DNA of 64,000 nt from Mustelus asterias (taxonomy: Eukaryota): the NCBI RefSeq assembly GCF_964213995.1, contig NW_027590419.1, positions 248,001 through 312,000 of the forward strand, in the 5' to 3' direction. Shown piece after piece: positions 3,483 through 62,835 of the stretch. Both the position numbers and the translations under genes were made by a program. The notes beneath the pieces were generated by a model. It had not been told where the DNA came from, did no database searches, and worked only from the letters and a program-made list of their open reading frames with translations. The stretch's first letter is position 1. Every line of letters starts with the position of its first letter.

Positions 3483-3818
3483 AGGGTGGTACAATGGCAC
3501 AGTGGTTGGCACTGCTCCCTCACAGCATCAGGAACCCGGGTTCAATTCCAGCCTCGGATGACTGTCTGTTTTGAGTTTGCACATTCTCCCCGTGTCTGCG
3601 TGGGTTTCCTCCGGGTGCTGCGGTTTCCTCCCACACTCCAAAGCTATGCGGGCTATTTTGATTGGCTATGCTAAATTGCCCCTTAGTGTCCAGGGATGTG
3701 TAGGTTTGGGGAATTAGCTCTGGTAAATGCATGGCGTTATGCGGATAAATGCTCTTTCGGAGAGTCAGTACAGACCCGATAGGCTGAATGGCCTCCTTCT
3801 GCACTGTGGTGATTGTAT
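3483..3818 (+). mobile_element. HE1-type SINE
   Basis: A/B boxes, V-domain, CR1-like tail. Confidence 0.85.
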
Positions 3819-53662: not shown

Positions 53663-54387
53663 AAGGACATTGCATTAAGTTCATTATCGGAGCGCGTGTC
53701 TTTATTGAAGAAAATTTGATTGAAGGAACAAATGCAGAAACATAGTGTTAACACTGATAACAAACTTATTATTTTTTAAAATATTCTTATGAGTTGTCAA
53801 TGTTGCCACTCCTGTAGTTATGTACCAACTATTCGATGGATAGACTAGTTCCCATTGCACAAGTTCCCAAATTATCGAACGATATTTTAGGACTAACATC
53901 AGGACCTTCTTCTTGTCAGACCGGGACTGGTCACAGTGTGGAATGAAACTTCAGAAAGAACGAGAGAGCAAAATGCACTGAAATCGTTGGATCGTAGAAC
54001 AGAAGGAACGTTGTAAGCTCTCCCGCAATGAAAGAGCTATAACAAGAAGGAGGAAACAGCTCTTCTCATTTATAACTATCTCGTGAACTGCAACTTGTCG
54101 AAGATCCAAGTGAAGAATTGCACCCTGGAATTACCAGTATTCACCAGTAGAGAGCAGTGTGTCGCGTGAGAAATATTTAATCTGGGCGTGTCAGGTGTGT
54201 CCTCAGAGGTTGTGTGGGTCTGTGTCAGTGTGAAACGCTCAGTATGGGTGGCTAAAGTAGAACCCGCCTAATGTTGTCAGTTCAACATAAACACGGCACT
54301 GAACTGAACCCGAAGAGAATACTTGGTTCCGGGTTAATTTCCATCTCCTGGTTCAAAGCTGATCTCGGTGTTGTGTGTGAACTGAGA

Positions 54388-54720
54388 ATGGTCAGGATTG
54401 GCATCGACGTTTTGTTGTTTATCACTCTGATCTGCACGGGGATGACCGGAGAAGCTGAGTTGCTGCAGCTCCCTCCACGGATGGTTATCAGTGAAGCGAG
54501 AAATATATCCATGAACTGCACTATTTCCATTACGTTTGACATCGTGCGTTGGTATAAACAGCTCCCGAATCAGTCACCCCAGCATCTGGTGATGGCCACA
54601 AGAGGAACCGATCAACACGGGAGGATCACTGCTTCGATCGGTGAAGGCAACAAACTCAGCATCCTGACTGTGAGGGACGTACAGGTTTCAGACACTGCCA
54701 CCTATCTCTGCGCCGTGAGG
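54388..54720 (+). CDS. TRAV: T-cell receptor alpha/delta variable segment, leader and V in one exon (111 aa, germline, unrearranged)
   Basis: ATG at 54388 gives signal peptide MVRIGIDVLLFITLICTG-MTG, continuous with an Ig V-set domain (MNC, WYKQ, DTATYLCAVR). RSS starts immediately at 54721. Alpha vs delta usage cannot be resolved from sequence alone. Confidence 0.9.
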
Positions 54721-54759
54721 CACAGTGTAAAAAACACAGGCAGGTCCCGTGCCAAAACC
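54721..54759 (+). other. 23-bp-spacer recombination signal sequence
   Basis: CACAGTG (54721-54727), 23-nt spacer, GCCAAAACC (54751-54759; consensus ACAAAAACC). Confidence 0.92.
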
Positions 54760-55820: not shown

Positions 55821-55980
55821 ATGGGGGTGAAAGTCTGTCTGTCTCTGGCTATTGTCCTGATCACAGGTTGGTCATTTTGAACCTTTGACTGAAATCCGCC
55901 AATCACCATATTCATTGCCCATTTCCATTTCTAGGCGATTATTCCGTTGTTGTTACTCCTTCTAACCCGCTGCGTGTCTG
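55821..55980 (+). pseudogene. Truncated V-like gene: leader exon 55821-55866, intron 55867-55934, start of second exon
   Basis: 46-nt phase-1 exon ATG...ACA G|GTTGGT encoding MGVKVCLSLAIVLIT(G); acceptor TTTCCATTTCTAG|; then [15 protein letters not shown] before the sequence switches to zinc-finger DNA. Same 46-nt leader architecture as the V at 62835. Confidence 0.65.
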
Positions 55981-55989
55981 TTGTCTATT

Positions 55990-56793
55990 TTCACTCAGTT
56001 ATCCAGCCTGCAGACACACCAGCGAGTTCACACTGGGGAGAGGCCCTTCACCTGCTCTCAGTGTGGGGTGGGATTCACTCAGTCATCCCACCTGTGGATA
56101 CACCAGCGAGTTCACACTGGGGAGAGGCCCTTCACCTGCTCTCAGTGTGGGAAGGGATTCTGTGATTCATCCAGCCTGCTGAGACACCAGCGAGTTCACA
56201 CTGGGGAGAGGGCATTCACCTGCTCTCAGTGTGGGAAGGGATTCTGTGATTCATCCAGCCTGCTGAGACACCAGCGAGTTCACACTGGGGAGAGGCCGTT
56301 CACCTGCTCTCAGTGTGGGGAGGGATTCACTCGGTTAGCCACTCTGCGGATACACCAGCAAGTTCACACCGGGGAGAGGCCATTCACCTGCTCTCAGTGT
56401 GGGAAGGGATTCATTGATTTATCCGCCCTGTGGAGACACCAGCGAGTTCACACTGGGGAGAGGCCGTTCACCTGCTCTCAGTGTGAGAAGAGGTTCAGTC
56501 ATTTATCTGACCTGCAGAGACACCAGCGAGTTCACACTGGGGAGAGGCCATTCACCTGCTCTCAGTGTGAGAAGGGATTCACTCGGTTATCCAGCCTGCG
56601 GACACACGAGCAAGCTCACACTGGGGAGAGACCGTTCACCTGCTCTCAGTGTGGGAATGGATTCACTCGGTTATCCAGCCTGCGGACACACCAGCTGGTT
56701 CACACTGGGGAGAGGCCGTTCACCTGCTCTCAGTGTGGGAAGGGATTCAGAGTTTCATCCCACCTGCTGAGACACCAACAAGTTCACGAGTGA
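55990..56793 (+). pseudogene. 5'-truncated tandem C2H2 zinc-finger array (9 complete fingers plus a partial one); open frame, no in-frame ATG
   Basis: Repeats of CSQCGKGF...L.RHQRVH with TGERPF linkers at an 84-bp period; starts mid-finger ([10 protein letters not shown]); stop TGA at 56791-56793. Confidence 0.85.
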
Positions 56794-59937: not shown

Positions 59938-59976
59938 AGTTTTTGTACAGGTTCAGCCCAGCTCTGTGTCTCTGTG
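59938..59976 (-). other. 23-bp-spacer RSS
   Basis: Minus strand CACAGAG (59976-59970), 23-nt spacer, ACAAAAACT (59946-59938). Confidence 0.9.
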
Positions 59977-60314
59977 GGTCTCAGTGCGCAGTAATAAACC
60001 CCGGAGTCTGCCAGCTCTGTTTTAGACACATTCAGAGGGACTGTGCGGGTTGAATCATTGAGTTCTACTGAAAAACGGTCCCCTTTGGATCTCCCTGTGT
60101 TCCCGGTGTATTTATGTGTCTGCAGCAGATATTCCATGGATCCACTGGGATACTGACGGTACCAGAAAAGATCAAAGCTGTTGCTTGTAGCTGTGTAATT
60201 ACAGAGCAACCGAACATCATCTCCTTCAGTGACGGTGACTGCAGCCGCTGTCTGTGAAACAGAATCTCCTCGGGAATGTCCTGTAAGAATCCAAAGAAAT
60301 ATTAAATTAAACAT
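59977..60314 (-). CDS. TRAV: T-cell receptor alpha/delta variable segment (V exon 60280-59977; in-frame ATG at 60314)
   Basis: GDSVSQT...VTEGDDVRLLCNY...LFWYRQYP...DRFSV...DSGVYYCALR; acceptor-like TTCTTACAG|GA at 60281; RSS adjacent. Confidence 0.92.
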
Positions 60315-61763
60315 TGCAATTTCACTCAGTTTTCCCAGAATTTGCCCGTTATCGGCAAAAATAATCTCAGAGAAAAATCAGACAGCAAAACAGAAACATA
60401 TTTTTCACAGTTCAGTGGCTGGAATGGGAAGACGTTTGTGGCGATTAAATAAAACTTCCACCATAAACATTCTCTTCTTTCTAACGAGATCAGTTCCTCG
60501 TCTTCAGTCCCTGTAACTGGAAACAGCTCACGGTCTGTCTGTTTGAAATGTGATGTTTGCCAAAGTGGTATCACTGGTATCAGAGGAGCTTGAATCTGAG
60601 CCCAATTGATTCTCTATCAATCCCGGGGGGAAATGTGCCCAATCCCAACAGTGTTCAGTGTTGAGACCAGAGAGATCCAAATAACTTTTCGATGTTGTGA
60701 TCAATCCATTCCCTGATCAACCCCCTTGCATTGAGCGAACAGCCCGACAGAATATAGTGTGTGGTAATGGTGTGTAACACAGAGTGAGCAACTTGTGAAC
60801 TTACCGATTAACAGAGCTGCCGCTGTGAGGAATAAATACAGAGTAACAAGACACATGATTGCAGAGCTCGCGGTGAATTTGACCAGAACGAGTTGAAGCT
60901 GAATTTGTGTCGGTCAAGAGTTGGGAAAAGGGTGAGTCATATCCGGCTCCCTGTTGATTGGTTTACTGTTGAGAACGTCATCAGATGACATCCAATCGGC
61001 ATCAATCTCCTATGTTCTTCAGTTCAACCAATGACCTCACAGTTCCTTTATCTGCAATTCATCCTATTGGCGGAGGGACGAAAGGAACAAAGTGAATTTG
61101 GTCATCCCACGACAGGGGATTACTTTCCCCTTCAACCATCATTTCAGGAACCGACCGGTCCCCTGAGTCCTGATGGCTCTGTTCTGACATGGAGAATGAC
61201 AATATCCATCCTCACAGCAACATAACAAGCAGTTTGTTATTAATCATGTTTGGGATATCAGCTATAGCGCGGGGGAGGATGATGCTTTAGTCAAAACATC
61301 TACCTGATAAGAAGTGACAGAACAATGAATGGTCTGAGATATTTCCATATGATGTTCTCTCAATTTGTAATTTTGCAGTCTGTCAAATCCTCTTTCAGAG
61401 TGGAAATATAGCTTGCCTCCCCATTGGACTGCTGATCCAATCAGTGCCGAACAGGGAAAAGCAGCAAAGATCAATATCTCCAATGAAATATCCAAGAAAA
61501 CAGCAAAGGAGAGACGGGTCAGAGTGCGAACAACACAGGAAAACTGTGGGTGGGACTACCATAGGCAGTGTGGTGACCGCTAGGATTTATCTGCAAGGAG
61601 CTGAACTCAATAACAATGTCAAATTGGAAATTCTGTAACTTTGTCTCTCTATATGAGAGGCAGCTGAATGTCCATTCCATACTGCGGACCAGCATTCTTG
61701 CACCAGGAGTATCGGATTAGTAAGTGATTCAGTACAAAGCGAAATCCTCATCAGTGATGTTTG

Positions 61764-62297: not shown

Positions 62298-62337
62298 GGT
62301 TTTTGTACGGCAATCGCTATATCTCTGCAGCAGTGTG
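62298..62337 (-). other. 23-type RSS with 24-nt spacer
   Basis: Minus strand CACACTG (62337-62331), 24-nt spacer, perfect ACAAAAACC (62306-62298). Confidence 0.85.
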
Positions 62338-62835
62338 GGTTTCATGGCACAGAAGTACCCGGCGCTGTCGGAAATCAGTGTGTTACTGATCGTCAGCTCG
62401 CTAGTCTTGTTCTTTTTATCAAATTTGGAAGAAAACCGATCATTGAGGTCGGGATTCTTTTGCACAATCTCTCCAATAAGCTGAAACATGTACACTGGAG
62501 CTTTCCCGGGCTGCTGACTGTACCAGTACACATAAGGGTTGGAATCGCTTGTTTTCAAAGCGCAGGTTAGTGTGACATCATTTTCCTCTTTAACCTTTAT
62601 TCCAGGATCCAATTGTTCCACTTCGTCTTGGTGGCTCCTTTCTAACAGAAACAACAGCAATATGACAATCAGAGTTAGCCTCAGATCAAACGATACAATT
62701 ATCATTATCACTATTGTTTTATCAACAAGAATATCTGGGTTACAGCTGTCAGGAGGAGCTTGTAGTTTTACTGGGAAGAAAATACTTACTGAGAAGTGAG
62801 AGAATGATGAGGATCGGAGTGAGATAGTTCACCAT
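62338..62835 (-). CDS. TRAV: T-cell receptor alpha/delta variable segment, two exons (leader 62835-62790; V exon 62641-62338; 148-nt intron)
   Basis: Leader MVNYLTPILIILSLL with A|GTAAGT donor; TTTCTGTTAG|AA acceptor; V: KRSHQDEVEQ...VTLTC...VYWYSQQPGKAP...DRFS...DSAGYFCAMK. Confidence 0.92.

Follow-up and report, generated by a model that had tools for sequence, protein, structure and literature searches.

Split and single-exon leaders of V genes

The split leader is the canonical arrangement in antigen receptor V genes, and in the passages seen of a 2025 shark paper it is described as "found in all AgR genes" (PMC12227049). The rule of a split leader in TCR alpha V segments (TRAV) has, however, known exceptions, such as chicken TRAV1; according to the relevant part of PMC10972964, leader and V are encoded by one exon in chicken TRAV1 and in most TRGV1 genes, in agreement with the single-exon V-alpha genes of chicken to which the original prediction for the present locus referred. 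The leader intron is also missing from opossum TRMVj, which is germline-joined to D and J (PMC2275272, in part). For sharks, no report of a single-exon V gene was found in a literature search that covered mostly listings, with key shark-locus papers outside its coverage; the passages of the duck paper PMC5278385 and of PMC10322711, and the short text of PMC2192082, are silent on the subject.

The V gene considered here lies in a stretch of 64,000 nucleotides of Mustelus asterias DNA (the window), on an unplaced contig of 362 kb (C387). Like chicken TRAV1, it belongs to an unrearranged multigene family with leader and V in one exon, but the V lineage is a different one, the bird TRAV1-type domains being placed elsewhere in the trees discussed below. 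In contrast to the joined opossum gene, the shark family is unjoined, keeps the 23-RSS and numbers at least 66 copies. Compared with the canonical split leader, the family is colinear in leader length, in the length of the second leader part and at the mature start, whereas the intron is missing, which makes it an exception in a cartilaginous fish.

Structure, copies and apparent expression of the shark family

An uninterrupted forward-strand ORF at 54388 runs from the ATG through a hydrophobic leader of 21 residues and a V domain, with no stop (Table 1). The V domain matches the Pfam V-set model at 34.3 bits (cut-off 26), and its top single-domain PDB matches are TCR alpha chains, while protein searches with single sequences returned no match. 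It is followed by a heptamer CACAGTG, a spacer of 23 nt and the nonamer GCCAAAACC, which is degenerate in this copy compared with the consensus form in most paralogues on contig C71; it has two mismatches to the nonamer consensus. The Cys-Trp-Cys V-set domain and the 3' 23-RSS are thus those of a TCR alpha/delta V segment, the split leader with its phase-1 intron is lacking, and the germline-joined V(D)J without RSS that marks a processed retrocopy is not seen. As had been predicted, the gene is of the TCR alpha type, unrearranged and intronless, with a 23-RSS; the fusion at the usual intron position, Thr-Gly (ACG GGG, with the junction after the first G of the Gly codon), was likewise borne out by the acceptor of an intron-bearing sister family, which falls inside the matching Gly18 codon. 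The 63 residues between Cys 54517 and Cys 54709, against 70 in the V gene at 60.2 kb, were counted correctly, but the compactness read from them is unremarkable, as just two gaps are needed to align the domain with a human TCR alpha chain and the sister family has 60 residues between the cysteines. The copy at 54388 is itself rather likely to be functional.

Table 1. Positions in the window of the single-exon V gene, its 5' region and the two conventional V genes
Feature	Position	Strand	Remarks
Conserved 5' region	54195..54387	+	without CRE or CCAAT motifs
Signal peptide, unsplit, 21 codons	54388..54450	+	presumed cleavage after Gly21
Gly18 codon, at the phase-1 intron position of the sister family	54439..54441	+	junction between 54439 and 54440; intron absent here
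TCR alpha-type V domain	54451..54720	+	Cys 54517-54519, Trp 54550-54552, Cys 54709-54711
23-RSS	54721..54759	+	heptamer 54721-54727, spacer 54728-54750, nonamer 54751-54759 (2 mismatches)
Conventional V gene, internal control	59938..60856	-	524-nt leader intron (60804-60281), 23-RSS
Conventional V gene, internal control	62298..62835	-	148-nt leader intron (62789-62642), RSS spacer 24 nt

Ordinary phase-1 introns split the leaders of both conventional V genes of the window. A C2H2 zinc-finger ORF lies between the V genes (55966-56793, +), and a lone consensus heptamer with a 23-nt spacer and a weak nonamer, with no V frame upstream, is found at 3498-3536 (+), where it may be a chance site or a relic.

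A pattern spanning the fused junction found at least 66 copies genome-wide, some of which may be uncollapsed haplotypes, and 0 in the reversed control. Along 2-2.7 kb, nine loci are 98-99% identical to the window; dozens of full-length leader and V matches were obtained from the own-genome search (150 of the 1250 candidates scored), and the intron is absent from all 30 loci opened, among them one whose start codon is GTG and another whose heptamer is damaged. The sampled regions yielded 11 V clusters, one of which (35 distinct domains) is the intronless family; in eight others most members were called as intron-bearing, and two gave mostly no call. Three loci (L038-L040) are pseudogenes of the intronless family, with a leader stop, an FR1 frameshift and a near-consensus RSS. 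A metagenome scan gave two loci among 87 candidates, neither of them belonging to the family.

Paralogues of the gene share contig C71 with a J array (18.37-18.42 Mb; 32 J found, with 12-RSS) that is followed by an alpha-type transmembrane exon. Twelve intronless V genes stand there in a tandem array (C71:19363811-19397248, spacing about 2.4 kb), about 0.93 Mb downstream of the alpha constant region and on the opposite strand, with the differences between members concentrated in CDR1; such inverted members would join J by inversion. In the V-set search (2601 candidates, 150 scored), V genes in both orientations extended across some 15 Mb of C71 (4.7-19.5 Mb) and were also found on dozens of small, unplaced contigs, and the locus may be read either as very large and recently duplicated or as uncollapsed haplotypes. 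The same J motif occurs in two J-alpha arrays, C546:179911-234752 and that of C71, which are either a second haplotype or a duplicated J cluster.

The expression evidence comes from relatives. In two runs (X1 and X2), guessed to be RNA of another organism at about 90% identity, a contig covers 54375 to 54681 without gaps, so that the leader is unspliced, and a V end continues into an FGxG J segment, with no cover past the RSS; the J motif of X1 maps to the J arrays of C71 and C546. In other contigs of X1, leader and V stand as far apart as in the genome, as read from record lengths. Nurse shark TCR-alpha clones labelled aV9 (PMC5931798, supplement rows 391-394) include this V type by a by-eye comparison. 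The rows seen of that source have the same short V type and motifs as the intronless family and start at the mature domain, the leader and intron state thus being absent from them, and the word "intron" does not occur in its main text (count 0). The aV9-type V is likely, from its sequence, to be of the same family. The label aV9.1 itself spans two unrelated V sequences (PMC5931798, supplement 3, rows 385-396). Use in V-J rearrangements is therefore found for relatives, in the V-J join of X1/X2 and in the nurse shark clones, and the intronless V probably rearranges to J-alpha in the manner of other V genes, the V-J and C-alpha expression having been seen in the relatives only. Two bamboo shark gene models also match the family, with the same kind of leader (the exon structure is not visible in models); one of them, P0005, has 53-62% protein identity to the family.

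The sister family and possible routes to the single exon

In both trees, built from alignments of only 91 columns, the family forms a single starred clade, into which the bamboo shark model falls; sister to it is an intron-bearing family (introns of 171-189 nt) together with an elephant shark V (support 96/87 and 98/89). The acceptor of the sister family, which ends a phase-1 intron, lies 77 nt before the first cysteine. Compared with it, the fused exon is colinear on the 3' side of the junction, whereas the 5' side does not align to the sister exon 1. The account that joins these observations best, a V family of at least 66 copies with a single exon before the 23-RSS, which would have become single-exon once in sharks by recruitment of the intron end as leader, is offered tentatively.

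According to that account, a V exon would have lost its leader exon and promoter by a break or a new start site inside the leader intron, and the T-rich 3' end of the intron would have been recruited as a new signal peptide; the latent frames at intron ends described below, which are common in the locus, count in its favour. Such recruitment is favoured over cDNA-mediated loss and clean deletion as the possible, not the established, route. The junction is suggestive: 12 of the 15 representative acceptors end in ACAG, while the family reads AC[G/T/C]G at the junction, one silent base off, with the codon ACA in none of 34 family Thr codons. However, AC[C/T]G also ends 4 of 15 leader exons, so that a precise loss gives the same junction. 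By a first-order Markov score, whose training rows contain near-duplicates, the family leaders lean towards intron ends (range -1.1 to 6.6) and away from leader exons, 13 of 15 of which score below 0. Direct comparison of the family leader DNA gave no match either with the sister intron end (z up to 1.8) or with the sister exon 1 (z up to 1.4). A codon-position test of the leader was set aside, as the third-position excess was absent even in FR1.

The promoter bears on the same question, since an in-place loss is expected to keep it, and the absence from the family of the CRE half-sites of the sister was therefore counted for recruitment. These half-sites occur in 0/20 and 0/12 members of two subfamilies against 13/13 in the sister, counts that are affected by the family copies not being independent; none stands within 800 nt in 5 of 13 family members examined. 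Of the 12 intron-bearing representatives, 2 likewise lack both promoter motifs, and about half of shuffled 350-mers contain a single hit by chance. No upstream similarity between family and sister was found. The family's own 5' region can be read either as a TATA-like element (54252-54257) with an initiator-like site near 54279 or as containing an 86-nt 5'-UTR intron (54195-54280), for which no spliced joint was seen, one low-depth X1 contig crossing the site unspliced.

Promoter swaps do occur in the locus, a point also counted for recruitment. Six copies of the L033 type (on C436, C591, C124, C900, C88 and C108) carry foreign V sequence upstream (L033:295-815), with a CRE/CCAAT promoter, a decayed start-less leader exon, a 157-nt GT-AG intron and FR1 of another V family, ending at the first-cysteine position of the donor family, just before the intronless ATG. 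This part is 73-74% identical to L147-L152, and the donor family resembles, by eye, nurse shark aV10 (PMC5931798, in part). A protein HMM did not recognise the remnant at a significant level (5.3 bits against a null 95% of 5.0), and X1 contigs do not cover it, which was given no weight in either direction. The chimera would yield a spliced non-coding 5' exon. It is restricted to one subfamily and is thus a later chimera, not a founding scar; a family-wide insertion scar was rejected, 11 of the 13 upstream regions tested being without such homology (z up to 1.3). L147-L152 are aV10-like V pseudogenes without the first Cys and Trp, frameshifted in 6/6 opened, with many dispersed copies.

The principal alternative to recruitment, which we consider somewhat less likely, is intron loss through a reverse transcript, in which the spliced transcript of a germline (or rearranged) V either served to convert the 5' part of the gene in place or, RSS included, was retroposed into the locus, with amplification afterwards. 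It would account for a junction exactly at the phase-1 site of the sister, followed by a second leader part of the usual 11 nt, for an RSS region resembling that of the sister (79% over 43 nt), and for the new promoter, which retroposition predicts just as recruitment does; the intronless opossum TRMVj, ascribed to retrotransposition or deletion in the part seen of PMC2275272, is a precedent. However, no poly-A remnant is seen, the longest A run being at most 9 in 48/48 rows (a weak sign after long decay), with no A tract above 9 nt in the 160 nt after the nonamer. For this route V genes would also have to be transcribed in germ cells and, in the case of retroposition, the copy would have to insert within the locus; in-place conversion should have kept a promoter similar to that of the sister upstream, and the exon-1 parts, 17 against 19 codons, do not align. 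The retained RSS does not discriminate between the routes, because conversion by a cDNA may be limited to the 5' part and an intron end can become a leader without any removal of the intron; the prediction was right that the RSS is kept, but its conclusion that a germline transcript or a precise deletion must be the cause did not hold.

That end joining removed the intron from the genomic DNA, in frame and in place, is still less probable. No germ-cell transcript is needed for it, and rearrangement is extensive in the locus, where V genes stand in both orientations and recent duplicates are 98-99% identical, but under it the promoter should be kept and the leader should show homology to the sister exon 1, neither of which was detected. 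A leader motif DFLLF shared with the sister was considered as a sign of imprecise deletion and, being present in one subfamily only, was treated as chance.

In-frame frames opening with an ATG and a hydrophobic stretch stand at the intron ends of 26 of the 57 distinct spliced V genes sampled, including, on the minus strand, both conventional V genes of the window (60317-60280 and 62705-62642); these pseudo-leaders are an annotation trap and a possible raw material for new leaders. That the leader at 54388 is itself such an intron end read in frame, with the true leader exon upstream of a donor-like site at 54195, is hardly credible: AG is missing at the acceptor position in all 40 distinct family 5' ends, the distance from the ATG to the first cysteine is fixed (43 codons in 43 of 48 rows, 45 in two, the ATG absent in three), the bamboo shark models have the same leader, the X1 contigs run continuously from leader into V, and no leader is encoded 5' of the donor-like site.

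Probable independence from the birds and meaning for V-gene evolution

The original prediction held that the single-exon lineage could predate the split of sharks and bony vertebrates if the gene grouped with the avian ones, and that grouping with intron-containing shark V genes would speak against this. The latter grouping was found, with the support given above, and identity to the bird TRAV1-type domains was 26-27% in that comparison against 41-48% to the intron-bearing sister. The bird rows are domains of curlew and sparrow with the chicken TRAV1 motif of PMC10972964, not chicken itself; they branch with a skink V and the locus L139 (support 97/89). L139, a mammal-like V of TRAV26-like type, has kept an acceptor rich in pyrimidines. 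The mature start of the gene at 54388 is EAELLQ, not the avian TRAV1 motif QVQQ (PMC10972964, in part), and although leader and V share one exon as in avian TRAV1, no clade with the bird TRAV1-type domains appeared in either tree.

A single-exon V lineage common to chicken TRAV1 and the shark family since before that split is very improbable, and the idea of an ancient shared lineage is largely refuted. The single-exon state of chicken TRAV1 (PMC10972964, in part) agrees with it, and with the full 61 rows an AU test did not reject a clade of shark and bird single-exon genes (p 0.207). However, the clade was rejected with 57 rows (p 0.0017 and 0.0011), a set from which five flagged long rows had been dropped and to which L139 had been added, the pruning having come after the first AU result; the two groups stand in separate starred clades with intron- or acceptor-bearing relatives (98/89 and 97/89), and the family and the bird domains are only 26-31% identical. 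The single-exon state likely arose once in sharks, independently of birds. By parsimony this origin would predate the split from the bamboo shark lineage, as judged from the nesting of the bamboo shark model P0005 in the family clade and not from the DNA of that gene.

Thus, the shark family likely represents an independent event, the ancient-origin idea is not supported, and the single-exon lineage is not pushed back to the origin of jawed vertebrates. As a second independent, large and apparently expressed single-exon exception, now in sharks, it indicates that the leader intron is dispensable. V-gene finders that need a splice acceptor would miss or mis-score such genes. It is conceivable, as a more speculative reading, that a whole expressed shark V family took its signal peptide de novo from an intron polypyrimidine tract, and that latent intron-end ATG frames rescue cut-off exons, maybe in birds too, without germ-cell reverse transcription. 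If the leader did come from the intron end, the family would offer an example, open to testing, of how a signal peptide can arise from non-coding DNA.
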